A stretch of 17,310 bases of DNA, taken from IMG/VR virus record IMGVR_UViG_2563366958_000013. One strand, given 5' to 3'. Position numbers and translations under genes: made by a program. This DNA comes from a virus. Lineage: Duplodnaviria > Heunggongvirae > Uroviricota > Caudoviricetes. Position 1 is the first letter of the stretch; each line of letters begins with the position of its first letter. Shown one piece after another: positions 6,618-15,445 of this stretch. A model generated the notes under the pieces. The model was not told the DNA's origin. It made no database searches and saw nothing but the letters and a program-made list of their open reading frames with translations.

Positions 6618-7315
6618 TGCAGGATATCCGGCAGGAAACACTGAATGAATGCACCCGTGCGGAGCAGTCGGCCAGCGTGGTGCTCTGGGAAATCGACCTG
6701 ACAGAGGTCGGTGGAGAACGTTATTTTTTCTGTAATGAGCAGAACGAAAAAGGTGAGCCGGTCACCTGGCAGGGGCGACAGTATCAGCCGTATCCCATTC
6801 AGGGGAGCGGTTTTGAACTGAATGGCAAAGGCACCAGTACGCGCCCCACGCTGACGGTTTCTAACCTGTACGGTATGGTCACCGGGATGGCGGAAGATAT
6901 GCAGAGTCTGGTCGGCGGAACGGTGGTCCGGCGTAAGGTTTACGCCCGTTTTCTGGATGCGGTGAACTTCGTCAACGGAAACAGTTACGCCGATCCGGAG
7001 CAGGAGGTGATCAGCCGCTGGCGCATTGAGCAGTGCAGCGAACTGAGCGCGGTGAGTGCCTCCTTTGTACTGTCCACGCCGACGGAAACGGATGGCGCTG
7101 TTTTTCCGGGACGTATCATGCTGGCCAACACCTGCACCTGGACCTATCGCGGTGACGAGTGCGGTTATAGCGGTCCGGCTGTCGCGGATGAATATGACCA
7201 GCCAACGTCCGATATCACGAAGGATAAATGCAGCAAATGCCTGAGCGGTTGTAAGTTCCGCAATAACGTCGGCAACTTTGGCGGCTTCCTTTCCATTAAC
7301 AAACTTTCGCAGTAA
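6617..7315 (+). CDS. L: tail tip protein L
   Basis: 232-aa product MQDIRQETLNECTRAEQSASVVLWEIDLTEVGGERYFFCNEQNEKGEPVTWQGRQYQPYPIQGSGFELNGKG... matches lambda gpL; TGATG overlap with the M stop; C-terminal Cys cluster (CSKCLSGCKF). Confidence 0.9.
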   Translation: MQDIRQETLNECTRAEQSASVVLWEIDLTEVGGERYFFCNEQNEKGEPVTWQGRQYQPYPIQGSGFELNGKGTSTRPTLTVSNLYGMVTGMAEDMQSLVGGTVVRRKVYARFLDAVNFVNGNSYADPEQEVISRWRIEQCSELSAVSASFVLSTPTETDGAVFPGRIMLANTCTWTYRGDECGYSGPAVADEYDQPTSDITKDKCSKCLSGCKFRNNVGNFGGFLSINKLSQ

Positions 7316-7320
7316 ATCCC

Positions 7321-8064
7321 ATGACACAGACAGAATCAGCGATTCTGGCGCACGCCCGGCGATGTGCGCCAGCGGAGTCGTGCGGCTTCGTGGTAAGCAC
7401 GCCGGAGGGGGAAAGATATTTCCCCTGCGTGAATATCTCCGGTGAGCCGGAGGCGTATTTCCGTATGTCGCCGGAAGACTGGCTGCAGGCAGAAATGCAG
7501 GGTGAGATTGTGGCGCTGGTCCACAGCCACCCCGGTGGCCTGCCCTGGCTGAGTGAGGCCGACCGGCGGCTGCAGGTGCAGAGTGATTTGCCGTGGTGGC
7601 TGGTCTGCCGGGGGACGATTCATAAGTTCCGCTGTGTGCCGCATCTCACCGGGCGGCGCTTTGAGCACGGTGTGACGGACTGTTACACACTGTTCCGGGA
7701 TGCTTATCATCTGGCGGGGATTGAGATGCCGGACTTTCATCGTGAGGATGACTGGTGGCGTAACGGCCAGAATCTCTATCTGGATAATCTGGAGGCGACG
7801 GGGCTGTATCAGGTGCCGTTGTCAGCGGCACAGCCGGGCGATGTGCTGCTGTGCTGTTTTGGTTCATCGGTGCCGAATCACGCCGCAATTTACTGCGGCG
7901 ACGGCGAGCTGCTGCACCATATTCCTGAACAACTGAGCAAACGAGAGAGGTACACCGACAAATGGCAGCGACGCACACACTCCCTCTGGCGTCACCGGGC
8001 ATGGCGCGCATCTGCCTTTACGGGGATTTACAACGATTTGGTCGCCGCATCGACCTTCGTGTGA
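7321..8064 (+). CDS. K: tail tip assembly protein K (JAB/MPN-like plus NlpC/P60-like domains)
   Basis: 247-aa product MTQTESAILAHARRCAPAESCGFVV...HSHPGG...VTDCYTLFRDAYH... matches lambda gpK. The HSHPGG (JAMM-like) and DCYTLF (NlpC/P60 Cys) motifs are visible in the sequence. Confidence 0.88.
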   Translation: MTQTESAILAHARRCAPAESCGFVVSTPEGERYFPCVNISGEPEAYFRMSPEDWLQAEMQGEIVALVHSHPGGLPWLSEADRRLQVQSDLPWWLVCRGTIHKFRCVPHLTGRRFEHGVTDCYTLFRDAYHLAGIEMPDFHREDDWWRNGQNLYLDNLEATGLYQVPLSAAQPGDVLLCCFGSSVPNHAAIYCGDGELLHHIPEQLSKRERYTDKWQRRTHSLWRHRAWRASAFTGIYNDLVAASTFV

Positions 8065-8633
8065 AAACGGGGGCTGAAGCCATCCGGGCACTGGCCACAC
8101 AGCTCCCGGCGTTTCGTCAGAAACTGAGCGACGGCTGGTATCAGGTACGGATTGCCGGGCGGGACGTCAGCACGTCCGGGTTAACGGCGCAGTTACATGA
8201 GACTCTGCCTGATGGCGCTGTGATTCATATTGTTCCCAGAGTCGCCGGGGCCAAGTCAGGTGGCGTATTCCAGATTGTCCTGGGGGCTGCCGCCATTGCC
8301 GGATCATTCTTTACCGCCGGAGCCACCCTTGCAGCATGGGGGGCAGCCATTGGGGCCGGTGGTATGACCGGCATCCTGTTTTCTCTCGGTGCCAGTATGG
8401 TGCTCGGTGGTGTGGCGCAGATGCTGGCACCGAAAGCCAGAACTCCCCGTACACAGACAACGGATAACGGTAAGCAGAACACCTATTTCTCCTCACTGGA
8501 TAACATGGTTGCCCAGGGCAATGTTCTGCCTGTTCTGTACGGGGAAATGCGCGTGGGGTCACGCGTGGTTTCTCAGGAGATCAGCACGGCAGACGAAGGG
8601 GACGGTGGTCAGGTTGTGGTGATTGGTCGCTGA
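7962..8633 (+). CDS. I: tail tip assembly protein I
   Basis: 223-aa product MAATHTLPLASPGMARICLYGDLQRFGRRIDLRVKTGAEAIRALATQLPAFRQKL... matches lambda gpI; starts 103 nt inside the 3' end of K in another frame, RBS GAGAGAGG (7943-7950). Confidence 0.88.
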   Translation: MAATHTLPLASPGMARICLYGDLQRFGRRIDLRVKTGAEAIRALATQLPAFRQKLSDGWYQVRIAGRDVSTSGLTAQLHETLPDGAVIHIVPRVAGAKSGGVFQIVLGAAAIAGSFFTAGATLAAWGAAIGAGGMTGILFSLGASMVLGGVAQMLAPKARTPRTQTTDNGKQNTYFSSLDNMVAQGNVLPVLYGEMRVGSRVVSQEISTADEGDGGQVVVIGR

Positions 8634-8651
8634 TGCAAAATGTTTTATGTG

Positions 8652-8672
8652 AAACCGCCTGCGGGCGGTTTT
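8652..8672 (+). other. perfect GC-rich hairpin in the I-J intergenic spacer (possible weak terminator or RNA-processing/stability element)
   Basis: aaaccgcc (8652-8659) / loop tgcg / ggcggttt (8664-8671) form a perfect 8-bp stem, followed by T then GTCATTTAT; lies 20 nt after the I stop and 22 nt before the J ATG. Confidence 0.35.
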
Positions 8673-8693
8673 GTCATTTATGGAGCGTGAGGA

Positions 8694-11600
8694 ATGGGTA
8701 AAGGAAGCAGTAAGGGGCATACCCCGCGCGAAGCGAAGGACAACCTGAAGTCCACGCAGTTGCTGAGTGTGATCGATGCCATCAGCGAAGGGCCGGTTGA
8801 AGGTCCGGTGGATGGATTAAAAAGCGTGCTGCTGAACAGTACGCCGGTGCTGGACACTGAGGGGAATACCAACATCTCCGGTGTCACGGTGGTGTTCCGT
8901 GCCGGTGAGCAGGAGCAGACACCGCCGGAGGGGTTTGAATCCTCCGGCTCCGAGACGGTGCTGGGTACGGAAGTGAAATATGACACGCCGATCACCCGCA
9001 CCATTACGTCTGCAAACATCGACCGTCTGCGCTTTACCTTCGGTGTACAGGCACTGGTGGAAACCACCTCAAAGGGTGACAGGAATCCGTCGGAAGTCCG
9101 TCTGCTGGTTCAGATACAACGTAACGGTGGCTGGGTGACGGAAAAAGACATCACCATTAAGGGCAAAACCACCTCGCAGTATCTGGCCTCGGTGGTGGTG
9201 GGTAACCTGCCGCCGCGCCCGTTTAATATCCGGATGCGCAGGATGACGCCGGACAGCACCACAGACCAGCTGCAGAACAAAACGCTCTGGTCGTCATACA
9301 CCGAAATCATCGATGTGAAACAGTGCTACCCGAACACGGCACTGGTCGGCGTGCAGGTGGACTCGGAGCAGTTCGGCAGCCAGCAGGTGAGCCGTAATTA
9401 TCATCTTCGCGGGCGCATTCTGCAGGTGCCGTCGAACTATAACCCGCAGACGCGGCAATACAGCGGTATCTGGGACGGAACGTTTAAGCCGGCATACAGC
9501 AACAACCCGGCCTGGTGTCTGTGGGATATGCTGACCCACCCGCGCTACGGCATGGGGAAACGTCTTGGTGCGGCGGATGTGGATAAATGGGCGCTGTATG
9601 TCATCGGCCAGTACTGCGACCAGTCAGTGCCGGACGGTTTTGGCGGCACGGAGCCGCGCATCACCTGTAATGCCTGGCTGACCACGCAGCGTAAGGCGTG
9701 GGATGTGCTCAGTGATTTCTGCTCGGCGATGCGCTGTATGCCGGTATGGAACGGGCAGACGCTGACGTTCGTGCAGGACCGACCATCAGATAAGGTGTGG
9801 ACCTATAACCGCAGTAATGTGGTGATGCCGGATGATGGCGCGCCGTTCCGCTACAGCTTCAGCGCCCTGAAGGACCGCCATAATGCCGTTGAGGTGAACT
9901 GGATTGACCCGAACAACGGCTGGGAGACGGCGACAGAGCTTGTTGAAGATACGCAGGCCATTGTCCGTTACGGTCGTAATGTCACGAAGATGGATGCCTT
10001 TGGCTGTACCAGCCGGGGGCAGGCACACCGCGCCGGGCTGTGGCTGATTAAAACTGAACTGCTGGAGACGCAGACCGTGGATTTCAGCGTGGGTGCTGAA
10101 GGGCTTCGCCATGTACCGGGCGATGTCATTGAAATCTGCGATGATGACTATGCCGGTATCAGCACCGGTGGTCGCGTGCTGGCGGTGAACAGCCAGACCC
10201 GGACGCTGACGCTCGACCGTGAAATCACGCTGCCATCCTCCGGTACCACGCTGATAAGCCTGGTTGACGGAAGTGGCAATCCGGTCAGCGTGGAGGTTCA
10301 GTCCGTCACCGACGGACTTAAGGTGAAAGTGAACCGGGTTCCTGACGGCGTTGCAGAATACAGTGTGTGGGGGCTGAAGTTGCCGACGTTGCGTCAGCGC
10401 CTGTTCCGCTGTGTGAGTATCCGGGAGAACGATGACGGTGCGTATGCCATCACCGCCGTGCAGCATGTACCGGAAAAAGAAGCCATCGTGGATAACGGGG
10501 CGCACTTTGACGGCGACCAGAGCGGCACGGTGAATGGTGTCACGCCGCCAGCGGTGCAGCACCTGACCGCCGAAGTCACCGCAGACAGCGGGGAATATCA
10601 GGTGCTGGCGCGCTGGGACACGCCGAAGGTGGTGAAGGGCGTGAGCTTCCTGCTCCGTCTGACCGTAACAGCGGATGACGGCAGTGAGCGGCTGGTCAGC
10701 ACGGCCCGGACGGCGGAAACCACTTACCGCTTCAGGCAGCTGGCGCTGGGGCGTTACACGCTGACGGTCCGGGCGGTAAATGCCCGGGGACAGCAGGGCG
10801 ATCCGGCGTCGGTATCGTTCCGGATTGCCGCACCGGCAGCACCGTCGAGGATTGAGCTGACGCCGGGCTATTTTCAGATAACCGCCACGCCGCATCTTGC
10901 CGTTTATGACCCGACGGTACAGTTTGAGTTCTGGTTCTCGGAAAAGCGGATTACCGATATCAGGCAGGTTGAAACCACAGCCCGCTATCTTGGTACGGCG
11001 CTGTACTGGATAGCCGCCAGTATCAATATCAAACCGGGCCATGATTATTACTTTTATATCCGCAGTGTGAACACCGTTGGCAAATCGGCATTCGTGGAGG
11101 CTGTCGGTCAGGCGAGCGATGATGCGGAAGGTTACCTGGATTTTTTCAAAGGCCAGATAACCGAATCCCATCTCGGCAAGGAGCTGCTGGAAAAAGTCGA
11201 GCTGACGGAGGATAACGCCAGCAGACTGGAGGAGTTTTCGAAAGAGTGGCAGGACGCTAACGATAAGTGGAATGCCATGTGGGGCGTCAAAATTGAGCAG
11301 ACCAAAGACGGCAAACATTATGTCGCGGGTATTGGCCTCAGCATGGAGGACACGGAAGAAGGCAAGCTGAGCCAGTTTCTGGTTGCCGCTAACCGTATCG
11401 CGTTTATTGACCCGGCAAACGGGAATGAAACGCCGATGTTTGTGGCGCAGGGCAATCAGATATTTATGAACGACGTGTTCCTGAAGCGCCTGACGGCCCC
11501 GACCATTACCAGTGGTGGAAATCCACCGGCATTTTCCCTGACATCAGACGGAAAGCTGACCGCTAAAAATGCGGATATCAGTGGCAGAGTGAATGCGAAC

Positions 11601-12107
11601 GCCGGGACGCTCAACAATGTCACGGTAAATGAAAACTGTACGATTAAGGGCATGCTGGAGGCGACTCAGGTCAGAGGTGACTTCGTTAAAGCTGTATCCA
11701 AATCATTCCCGAAACAGGCTGGTACGTGGGGTAACACGGAAACACCAAACGGGACGGTTACAGTCACCATCAGCGATGATCATAACTTTGACCGTCAAAT
11801 CATTATTCCGCCCATTATCTTTAACGGAATAGCGTATAGCGATCCGGGAAGTGGTAATAACCCGGGAGGTACAAGATACACGGGTTATGGTTTTGAAGTT
11901 CGCAAAAACGGTGTATTAATCGCATCCAGAGAAACTAAAGGGGCCATTCCCGGTAGCTACAGTGCGGTTATTGATATGCCGAGTGGCAGGGGAAGCGTCA
12001 CTCTGGAGTTTAAGGTTTTCCATAAAGGCAATCAGTGGGCAGGTAATATCACCGACTGTACGGTGATTGTGACCAAAAAAGCCGCTTCCGGCATCAGTAT
12101 TCGTTGA
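8694..12107 (+). CDS. J: tail tip attachment / central tail fiber (host specificity) protein J
   Basis: 1137-aa product; the first ~1000 residues ([34 protein letters not shown]...) closely match lambda gpJ as I recall it; the last ~130 residues look divergent. RBS GAGGAA upstream. Confidence 0.92.
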
Positions 12108-12840: not shown

Positions 12841-15237
12841 ATGGCAGTAAAGATTTCAGGTGTACTGAAAGACGGCACAGGAAAACCGGTACAGAACTGC
12901 TCAATCCAGCTGAAAGCAAAACGTAACAGCACCACGGTGGTAGTGAACACGCTGGCCTCAGAAAATCCGGATGAAGCCGGGCGTTACAGTATGGATGTTG
13001 AGTATGGCCAGTACAGCGTTATCCTGCTGGTTGAAGGTTTTTCGCCTTCACATGCCGGGACCATCACCGTGTATGAAGATTCTAAGCCGGGGACGCTGAA
13101 TGATTTTCTCGGTGCCATGACGGAAGATGATGTCATGCCGGAGGCATTGCGTCGTTTTGAGGAAATGGTGGAAGAAGCGGCACGCAACGCTGAAGCCGCC
13201 TCTCAGAGCGCAGCGGCGGCAAAGAAATCCGAAACTGCAGCGGCATCATCGAAGAACGCGGCGAAAACCTCAGAAACGAATGCAGCTAATAGTGCACAGG
13301 CGGCAGCGACCTCAAAGACTGCATCGGCAAACTCCGCGACAGCAGCCAAAAAATCAGAAACCAACGCGAAAAATAGCGAGACAGCCGCAAAGACGAGCGA
13401 AACCAACGCAAAGTCCAGCCAGACGGCAGCGAAAACCAGCGAAACGAATGCCAAAGCCAGTGAAACTGCGGCAAAAAACAGCCAGGTTGCAGCAGCCCAA
13501 AGCGAGAGCGCGGCAGCCGGTTCTGCGACTTCAGCAGCTGGATCAGCAACTGCTGCGGCTAACAGCCAGAAAGCTGCGAAGACGAGTGAAACTAACGCAA
13601 AGTCCAGCCAGACGGCAGCGAAGACCAGCGAAACGAATGCCAAAGCCAGCGAAACTGCGGCGAAAAACAGTCAGGATGCAGCAGCCCAAAGCGAGAGTGC
13701 TGCAGCTGGTTCTGCAAGCGCGGCGGCTGCTTCTGCCACTGCATCAGCCAACAGTCAAAAAGCAGCAAAAACCAGTGAAACCAATGCAAAGACAAGCGAG
13801 ACTGCAGCGGCGAACTCGGCGAAAGCATCGGCAGCAAGCCAGACAGCAGCTAAAGCAAGTGAAGACGCAGCCAGAGAGTATGCAAGTCAGGCAGCAGAGC
13901 CGTATAAATATGTCTTACAGCCACTGCCTGATGTGTGGATACCGTTTAACGATTCACTGGATATGATTACGGGCTTTTCGCCGTCATATAAAAAAATTGT
14001 TATTGGTGATGATGAAATAACGATGCCTGGCGACAAGGTTGTTAAGTTTAAACGCGCATCAACTGCCACATATATCAATAAATCAGGCGTATTTAGTGTT
14101 GCTAAAATTGATGAGCCACGATTTGAAAAAGAAGGTTTATTGATTGAAGGACAGCGCACTAACTATTTTGTTAAATCCAATACTCCCGCTGAATGGACGA
14201 GTACCAGCAATATCGATAAAACTAATAATGGTGTTGATGAATTTGGTTTTTCATATGCCAAAATGCGAACAAAAGATAATATGACAGGACAATCATCTGC
14301 ACTTAGTCTGCATACATGCAGTGCATCCCGGGGGATTGATGTTTGTGGCGATAATAAGTATTGCACTGTTTCATGCAGGGTTAAAGCTCCTGATGGTCTT
14401 CGTTGTCGTTTGCGTTTTGAAAAATACGATGGGTCGGTTTATACATTTTTAGGAGATGCTTATTTAACTTTCGGAACTCTGATAATAGAAAAAACTGGCG
14501 GAGCAGCCAATAGAATAGCAGCTACTGCAACTAAAGATCCGGTTACAGGGTGGATTTTCTATGAGGCAACTATAGAAGCTGTTGAAGGTGAAACCTTAAT
14601 TGGCGCAATGATTCAGTATGCGCCGAAAAAAGGTGGTATAACTGAAGCGGGAGATTATATTTACCTTGCAACACCACAATTTGAAAACGGCGGATGTGCT
14701 TCATCTTTTGTTATTACGACAACTGCACCCGCAACCCGCTCCAGTGATATGGTGACGATCCCAACTGAAAATAATATCTATAATAGACCGCTTACGTGTC
14801 TTGTCGAGGTTAATAGAAATTGGGGCGATATTCCTCCTAATGTAGCACCGCGTATTTTTGATTTTTCTGGTGTGCCACCTATTGAGTCAATTACATACGC
14901 TTTTAACACAACTGAGAAATATTACGGTCAGCTTTATATGCAAACTTATAAAGCGTCGACAAGTACTTACGTTTCTAGTGTGTTTGCTGGTCGAGCTGAT
15001 GTTCGAAAATTCATTGGTGGTTTTAATATTTATTCTGATGGTACTAAACGAGTAGTTTCTAACGGTGAGGCTACTAAAACTATGAAAACGGAGTGGACGG
15101 GCGTAAAAACACGGACCTTTATTCGAATTGGAGGTCAAGCCACATCGGGAACTCGTCATCTATTCGGCCATTTGAGAAATCTTCGTCTCTGGCATAAAGA
15201 ATTAACTGATGCGCAAATGGGGGAGAGTATTAAATGA
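12841..15237 (+). CDS. stf: side tail fiber protein, chimeric: lambda Stf-like N-terminus, Ala/Ser/Thr-rich repeat shaft, non-lambda C-terminal domain with a LamG/ConA-like signature
   Basis: 798-aa ORF; N-terminus MAVKISGVLKDGTGKPVQNCSIQLKAKRNSTTVVVNT...SKPGTLNDFLGAMTEDDVMPEALRRFEEMVEEAARNAEAA matches lambda Stf as I recall it. The central region is tandem repeats (AAKTSETNAKSSQT...). The C-terminal ~440 aa are AT-rich DNA and end ...GHLRNLRLWHKELTDAQMGESIK, which resembles the terminal motif of Laminin_G_3/ConA-like jelly-roll domains. RBS GGGGGGA upstream. Confidence 0.8.
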   Translation: MAVKISGVLKDGTGKPVQNCSIQLKAKRNSTTVVVNTLASENPDEAGRYSMDVEYGQYSVILLVEGFSPSHAGTITVYEDSKPGTLNDFLGAMTEDDVMPEALRRFEEMVEEAARNAEAASQSAAAAKKSETAAASSKNAAKTSETNAANSAQAAATSKTASANSATAAKKSETNAKNSETAAKTSETNAKSSQTAAKTSETNAKASETAAKNSQVAAAQSESAAAGSATSAAGSATAAANSQKAAKTSETNAKSSQTAAKTSETNAKASETAAKNSQDAAAQSESAAAGSASAAAASATASANSQKAAKTSETNAKTSETAAANSAKASAASQTAAKASEDAAREYASQAAEPYKYVLQPLPDVWIPFNDSLDMITGFSPSYKKIVIGDDEITMPGDKVVKFKRASTATYINKSGVFSVAKIDEPRFEKEGLLIEGQRTNYFVKSNTPAEWTSTSNIDKTNNGVDEFGFSYAKMRTKDNMTGQSSALSLHTCSASRGIDVCGDNKYCTVSCRVKAPDGLRCRLRFEKYDGSVYTFLGDAYLTFGTLIIEKTGGAANRIAATATKDPVTGWIFYEATIEAVEGETLIGAMIQYAPKKGGITEAGDYIYLATPQFENGGCASSFVITTTAPATRSSDMVTIPTENNIYNRPLTCLVEVNRNWGDIPPNVAPRIFDFSGVPPIESITYAFNTTEKYYGQLYMQTYKASTSTYVSSVFAGRADVRKFIGGFNIYSDGTKRVVSNGEATKTMKTEWTGVKTRTFIRIGGQATSGTRHLFGHLRNLRLWHKELTDAQMGESIK
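13387..13764 (+). repeat. two tandem ~189-bp (63-codon) imperfect direct repeats inside stf, with a partial third copy starting at 13765
   Basis: Unit beginning gc(a/g)aagacgag(c/t)gaaac(c/t)aacgcaaagtccagccagacggcagcgaa at 13387 recurs at 13576 with about 90% identity; protein repeat AAKTSETNAKSSQTAAKTSETNAKASETAAKNSQ(V/D)AAAQSESAAAGSA... Shorter ~14-codon sub-repeats extend from ~13200 to ~13860. Confidence 0.8.
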
Positions 15238-15381
15238 AAGATTTAACACTCAAATTTGCAGACAGGGCCGACTTTTCGGCCTTTATGGAGAGCATTGGCT
15301 ATTATGATGACGAGTCGATGCAGGATGATATTCTTATTGACGTGATAGGTAATGTGTACAAAGAAACCGGAGAACTTACTG

Positions 15382-15390
15382 AAGATGGCG
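15382..15390. repeat. IS1 target site duplication, left copy (AAGATGGCG)
   Basis: 9 bp immediately 5' of IS1 IRL, identical to 16159-16167. Confidence 0.9.
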
Positions 15391-15445
15391 GGTGATGCTG
15401 CCAACTTACTGATTTAGTGTATGATGGTGTTTTTGAGGTGCTCCA

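Follow-up and report, generated by a model that had tools for sequence, protein, structure and literature searches.

The out-of-frame overlap of the tail genes K and I in a lambda-like element: start of I, constraint and distribution among relatives

Where does the tail gene I begin when the end of its upstream neighbour K is read from the same DNA, and are both frames of the shared stretch under selection? The question is raised by a viral stretch of 17,310 nucleotides (IMG/VR record IMGVR_UViG_2563366958_000013, here called the window), in which the ORF list and the translations gave an out-of-frame overlap of K and I of 103 nt on the + strand. Public records conflict on both products, with I given as 223, 210 or 190 aa and K as 199 or 247 aa. 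The choice is relevant for expressing gpK or gpI or for engineering the junction, now that studies are clarifying how K takes the ubiquitin-like domain off gpI. The comparisons of related sequences favour an I of 223 aa and a K of 247 aa. The K/I junction in the window is likely the lambda K/I gene junction, with I started independently at ATG 7962. The overlap as such is an ordinary and already known feature, annotated in lambda ever since its genome was first sequenced. Added here are the comparative support for the 223-aa I and the 247-aa K, the sharing of the constraint between the frames and the confinement of the long overlap to the lambda clade.

K and I at the junction

In the domain search, K residues 3–104 matched PF14464 (JAB, E = 6e-14) and residues 111–224 matched PF00877 (NlpC/P60, C40, E = 6e-13). 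The JAMM motif HSHPGGLPWLSEAD was seen in the translation. This is the build of the gpK family, with an N-terminal JAB/MPN domain carrying a JAMM motif and a C-terminal NlpC/P60 domain. The last ~10 residues of the latter fall within the overlap. The I protein was one residue apart from chain I of PDB 8iyk (tail tip assembly protein I), having Thr164 instead of Ile, and its residues 133–222 matched chains of PDB 9e7m. It has the parts typical of gpI: the N-terminal PF06805 domain, a Gly-rich linker and the tail-tip C-terminal domain. A reading of the sequence alone had named the two genes and placed their overlap at 7962–8064, and both the identities (PF14464 plus PF00877 for K, PF06805 and the PDB matches for I) and the coordinates from the ORFs bore it out.

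Iyer, Burroughs and Aravind recognised that I carries a ubiquitin-like domain and that K combines JAB with NlpC/P60, and they predicted release of the ubiquitin-like domain, at its C-terminal glycine, by the JAB domain of K (PMC1779556). According to a 2025 conference report, the Davidson laboratory showed cleavage of gpI by K, and the cleavage orders tail-tip assembly (PMC12908700). In virions studied by cryo-EM, only gpI residues 134/135–223 were resolved and gpK was not found (PMC10721106, PMC12617516). For the window, cleavage of I by K is a prediction taken from this literature. In the mechanism we propose, K would be a JAB plus NlpC/P60 peptidase required in tail-tip assembly and absent from the virion, and I would be its downstream partner, with an N-terminal ubiquitin-like domain and a C-terminal plug domain in the tail tip.

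The length of K differs between the window (247 aa) and the lambda reference (199 aa). The reference lacks a G present at 7455, with GAGGCGTATT here and GAGGCTATT in lambda, and its K is annotated with 199 aa because the missing base frameshifts the first 48 codons. The 247-aa K was present in the window, in several resequenced lambda records and in all relatives examined. Only this form has the complete JAB domain, the 199-aa reference K being without the front of it. The discrepancy leaves the overlap unaffected. At its other end, K has its ATG (7321) 5 nt past the stop of L (TAA 7313–7315) and no obvious Shine-Dalgarno sequence in front. Since the L stop adjoins the K ATG and a clear Shine-Dalgarno sequence is lacking, translation of K may depend on coupling to that of L.

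Table 1 Features of the K/I region (positions are those of the window).
Feature	Position	Strand	Basis or remark
Gene K, tail-tip assembly protein, 247 aa, JAB/MPN + NlpC/P60	7321..8064	+	Stop TGA 8062–8064
G absent from lambda reference J02459/NC_001416 (there ~14267)	7455	+	Base-by-base comparison
Shine-Dalgarno sequence of I, GAGAGAGG	7943..7950	+	11 nt upstream of ATG 7962
Gene I, 223 aa	7962..8633	+	ORF, ATG 7962–7964; PF06805; PDB 8iyk, 9e7m
ATG1, best-supported start of I	7962..7964	+	A falls on the wobble position of K codon 214
Out-of-frame overlap of K and I, 103 nt	7962..8064	+	ORF list, translations
Overlap segment 1, end of K NlpC/P60 over I residues 1–13	7962..8000	+	Diversity, identity
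ATG2 (Met14 of I), alternative start	8001..8003	+	PGAP choice, 210 aa
Ubiquitin-like domain of I (PF06805), residues 14–97	8001–8252	+	E = 1e-28
Near-invariant core of the overlap	8019..8047	+	Wobble invariance in 14 diverged sequences
GTGA, K stop TGA 8062–8064 overlapping I-frame GTG 8061	8061..8064	+	
Gly-rich linker of I	Between ubiquitin-like domain and C-terminal part	+	
C-terminal part of I kept in the virion, residues ~134–223	8361–8630	+	Cryo-EM papers

The I frame is the K frame −1 ((7962−7321) mod 3 = 2), and codon position 1 of I coincides with position 3 of K, position 2 with 1, and position 3 with 2. As the sequence-only reading had it, ~34 codons are dual-coding: codons 1–34 of I lie over codons 215–247 plus the stop of K. 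An alternative frame that stays open for 34 codons is unremarkable by itself, its chance being ~0.2 by our own rough estimate. We consider the overlap real because both products have homologues and both frames are conserved. The ribosome-binding site that had been assigned to I was also recovered. GAGAGAGG has a predicted pairing of −9.3 kcal/mol with the 16S 3′ end, is made of the K codons CGA GAG AGG (Arg-Glu-Arg), and coincides in position with an RBS annotated in OM418625. In the proposed mechanism, I would be initiated independently at ATG 7962 through this Shine-Dalgarno sequence inside the Arg-Glu-Arg codons of K. Other ribosomes would read on in the +1 register and leave K at TGA 8064, so that the 103 nt would be translated in two frames.

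The start of I

Three starts of I are used in public records. ATG 7962 (ATG1, 223 aa) is annotated in J02459 and FM180578. ATG 8001 (ATG2, 210 aa) is the start given by the NCBI pipeline and found in cluster P0012, with 5268 members the most abundant in the protein database. GTG 8061 (190 aa) is annotated in PV340558, ON470581 and PV340551. If started at 7962, I would have (M)AATHTLPLASPGMAR as its N-terminal peptide.

The comparison between relatives points to ATG1 as the likely main start in the window. ATG1 was found in 61/61 unique sequences of the ATG1 group and was kept in all Escherichia, Shigella, Citrobacter, Edwardsiella and Morganella relatives examined. The conserved Trp215 codon of K dictates the TG, so that only the A counts as independent evidence. 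This A was kept in all 12 diverged representatives, although it closes three different K codons, AAA (Lys), TCA (Ser) and CGA (Arg); in the neighbouring K-only region of the same sequences, 2% of the K wobble sites were invariant. By 16S 3′-end pairing predictions, the strength of the Shine-Dalgarno sequence tracked whichever ATG is usable. In lineages with ATG1, the pairing energy was −5.9 to −9.3 kcal/mol ahead of ATG1 and −1.5 to −3.4 kcal/mol ahead of ATG2, and the three prophages with only ATG2 (L128, L130 and L135) had −6.4 to −9.3 kcal/mol before that codon. In four relatives (L115, L123, L124 and L126) there were stops in the I frame 1–2 codons upstream of ATG1. Literature searches found no published direct mapping of the gpI N-terminus or initiation site, lambda ribosome profiling lying outside their scope, and the one virion mass-spectrometry table searched had a single gpI peptide, not an N-terminal one. 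From the conservation in relatives we infer ATG 7962 as the initiation site of I in vivo.

The 223-aa I has to be weighed against two shorter forms. That I truly begins at ATG2, with an overlap of 64 nt and with codons 1–13 untranslated and present only as a side effect of coding for K, is unlikely, although several observations fit it. The PF06805 match begins at residue 14, distant homologues begin only 1–6 residues ahead of strand 1, and the equivalent ATG is exactly the one used in L128, L130 and L135. Residues 2–13 are variable and predicted to be disordered, and the NCBI pipeline prefers 210 aa for most E. coli prophage copies, as reflected in the size of P0012. However, neither the window (−2.5 kcal/mol) nor any other ATG1 lineage had a Shine-Dalgarno match before this codon, and the A of ATG1, a wobble base of K, is kept over three different K codons. 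In addition, Stx-type phages and Morganella have CTG in place of ATG2; they retain ATG1 and its Shine-Dalgarno sequence and have no other start ahead of strand 1. The GTGA at the K stop is a classic coupling motif, and the three records named above annotate I accordingly, as if it began at GTG 8061 by termination-reinitiation with a 4-nt overlap. This start is nevertheless very improbable and was rejected: relatives have GTA, GTC or ATA in place of the GTG, no Shine-Dalgarno match precedes it (+0.4 kcal/mol), and purifying selection is clear in the I frame ahead of 8061. A 190-aa I would also lose residues 1–33, including the invariant LYGDLQRFGRR and the first PF06805 strand, and with them two ubiquitin-like strands.

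A programmed −1 ribosomal frameshift in the overlap, producing a K-I fusion like that of the lambda G/G-T pair, is hardly conceivable. Relative to K, the I frame does lie at −1, open from position 7929 onwards, and fusion proteins of NlpC/P60 and I exist in databases. Yet no slippery heptamer of the form X XXY YYZ was present in the K frame from 7929 to 8064, no stable structure was predicted downstream (fold z = +1.3), and the database fusions have junctions that are all different, in clusters of only 1–2 sequences. The missing heptamer and the heterogeneous junctions led us to reject frameshifting. The fusions (P0009, P0013, P0014, P0018, P0037, P0042, P0064, P0083 and P0100) have their junctions in or beside the overlap, and resemble the outcome of indels, deletions or assembly errors that arose separately in prophage copies.

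With the independent start at ATG1 as the preferred reading, the first 13 residues of I would form a variable extension that is probably unstructured. In the AlphaFold model, which is of low confidence as a whole (mean pLDDT 42.8, alignment of 11 sequences), residues 1–12 had a pLDDT <50 and no secondary structure, and the first strand was at residues 15–19. Since lambda retains ATG2, a minor 210-aa isoform from ATG 8001 may exist there, as in the window, besides the ATG1 product.

Constraint on the two frames

Constraint was measured on 12 diverged representatives, and on 14 diverged sequences for the core block. The mean per-site diversity was 0.33 in the K-only flank (7801–7961) and 0.34 in the I-only flank (8065–8199), vs 0.25 in the first part of the overlap (7962–8000) and 0.21 in the second (8001–8061). 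These values agree with the earlier suggestion that dual-coding sequence is strongly constrained, and the patterns of conservation indicate selection on both the K and the I frame in the overlap.

The two parts of the overlap differed in how the constraint is shared. In 7962–8000, diversity had its maximum at the K wobble, and the mean pairwise amino-acid identity was 0.76 for K vs 0.54 for I. Here the end of the K domain dominates, with I residues 2–13 as a loosely constrained extension. In 8001–8061, invariant wobble sites were 9/21 for K and 8/20 for I, with 2% and 4% in the flanks. In the core (8019–8047), they were 6/10 for K and 5/9 for I, with 0–2% in the flanks; the binomial p-values for such counts overstate the significance and are indicative only, because the compared sequences are related. 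The core was almost invariant even where the sequences were elsewhere only ~50% identical. It encodes YGDLQRFGRR of I, in the region of strands 1–2 of the ubiquitin-like domain, and FTGIYNDL(V/A)A of the C-terminal tail of K. By this evidence, strands 1–2 of I and the conserved 19-residue tail of K are both constrained in 8001–8064.

Each invariant wobble base could be accounted for by the amino acid of the other frame, or by the stop that a change would create there. An RNA element was considered for the near-invariant core and rejected. The fold of 151 nt was less stable than shuffled sequences (z = +1.31), giving no signal of RNA structure, and the Rfam search returned no family, the sole match (E = 0.68) being a chance one elsewhere in the region. 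With the other frame explaining the invariant wobbles, and neither RNA fold, Rfam family nor slippery heptamer found, no further explanation is needed.

The sequence-only reading had advised to look for substitutions that are synonymous in both frames. In this form the check is unworkable: the wobble position of I is the second position of K, so a doubly synonymous change is hardly ever possible. The exceptions are first-position changes in Leu or Arg codons, and the sole one identified was T/C at 8028, which leaves Ile in K and Leu in I. This phase leaves almost no room for silent changes, and nearly any mutation in 7962–8064 alters two proteins.

The 19-residue tail of K, RASAFTGIYNDLVAASTFV, was found only in the lambda clade and is coded wholly over the ubiquitin-like strands 1–2 of I. 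Because the I-wobble sites are invariant, the tail appears to be selected in its own right. Going by this codon-position conservation, from which any function of the tail is inferred, we tentatively suggest that it may be a functional peptide, for example one that docks K onto gpI or the tip complex, and not a by-product of read-through. If so, the overlap would physically tie the tail of the enzyme and the core of its substrate into co-evolution.

Relatives, origin and comparison with known systems

The comparison covered 71 distinct forms of the junction, taken from phage records, from IMG/VR contigs and from bacterial contigs sampled as one genome per species. A scan of viral contigs with the I protein gave 80 loci in which I was essentially identical, of little use for deeper comparison. 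The diversity came from the scan of bacterial genome contigs and from tblastn of phage records with spread sampling. Early termination of K, named by the sequence-only reading as evidence that would count against the overlap, was looked for: the K stop was at 8064 in all E. coli-type relatives except one IMG/VR copy (L083), which had a premature stop at the equivalent of 7971. No start of I downstream of 8064 was found. In more distant relatives, the K stop was at the equivalents of 8058 or 8067. Three chromosomal copies from E. coli/Shigella (L133, L134 and L140) had frameshifted or degraded K/I junctions, consistent with decaying cryptic prophages.

Some assemblies contained contigs with a K/I region mostly 97–100% identical to lambda (L091–L105, L117–L121, L125, L129, L131, L137–L139 and L141; L117 only 67%). 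These contigs were mostly short, many with low coverage by name, and came from assemblies labelled Collinsella, Neobacillus, Pseudoxanthomonas, Chromatium, Paenibacillus, Bradyrhizobium, Streptomyces, Vibrio and others. They are almost certainly contamination of these assemblies with laboratory lambda DNA.

The overlap was 97–106 nt long in Escherichia, Citrobacter, Edwardsiella and Morganella. Prophages of Plesiomonas, an Aeromonadaceae MAG and Testudinibacter (L128, L130 and L135) had an overlap of 58–64 nt in the same phase, with the same K tail (..YTAIYNDL..) over the I motif LYGDLQRFG. In these prophages the equivalent of ATG1 is CTG or TTG, and I starts at the ATG equivalent to Met14, with its own Shine-Dalgarno sequence; in L128 and L130 a stop codon lies directly upstream of the ATG used. 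T1-like phages, Dhillonvirus, Webervirus, HK022-type and other siphophages share the gene order L-K-I-J and have homologous K and I, but their K ends ~19 residues earlier, after an RHKDL-type motif (at about residue 228 of lambda K). Nine such distant relatives were compared: HK022, the T1-like slyngel, Aeromonas pAEv1818, Serratia Bigdog, Yersinia YP10S2, Klebsiella MUC-5.2, Escherichia welsh, Vibrio phiV208 and Pseudomonas D14P. The two genes overlapped by 1–26 nt, in either phase, in seven of the nine, and were apart in HK022 and D14P. The I proteins of the distant relatives start 1–6 residues before the first strand, like a lambda I started at Met14. HK022 (L088, 715–939) carries the moron gp20 between K and I, and a second moron and srb after I.

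From this distribution, the long K/I overlap appears specific to the lambda clade. ATG2 would be the ancestral type of start, as used in the Plesiomonas, Aeromonadaceae and Testudinibacter prophages. The simplest order of events would have two steps. The K stop would have shifted ~19 codons downstream into I, giving an overlap of 58–64 nt, and I would then have come to be initiated 13 codons further upstream, at a new ATG with a new Shine-Dalgarno sequence inside K, giving 97–106 nt.

The region 7200–8800 was 99.6–99.7% identical to lambda and 99.9% to phage PhiR30_1. Across the window, identity to lambda was 97.7% up to ~13190 and then broke down, from which we take the element to be a lambda-like mosaic and not lambda itself. 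The J ORF (8694..12107) was 1137 aa long, compared with 1132 aa in lambda. An uninterrupted ORF of 798 aa was found at 12841..15237; its counterpart in laboratory lambda, the side-tail-fibre gene, is frameshifted (PMC10721106).

The sequence-only reading held that lambda has the same arrangement, as its records indeed annotate: in J02459/NC_001416, K is at 14276..14875 and I at 14773..15444, with an identical 103-nt overlap and the same frame relation. The further proposal, to use the overlap as a marker of closeness to lambda, does not stand. Base by base, there were zero differences from lambda in 7962–8064, where the locus varies least, and the overlap was 94–100% identical in E. coli relatives with I (8065–8200) down to 77–82%. 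It is a poor marker of closeness precisely because it is strongly constrained, and the informative differences lie outside it. In K and I these are the indel at 7455, the synonymous third-position changes at 7539, 7869 and 8222, and the change at 8452 that gives Thr here and Ile in lambda at I residue 164.

Out-of-frame dual coding also occurs elsewhere in lambda. Rz and Rz1 are, like K and I, made from a single stretch of the late operon, but Rz1 is wholly embedded in Rz. G and G-T likewise yield two proteins, but G-T needs a slippery site, and K/I is without one. Unlike either pair, K and I overlap at their ends, and initiation of I is probably independent.
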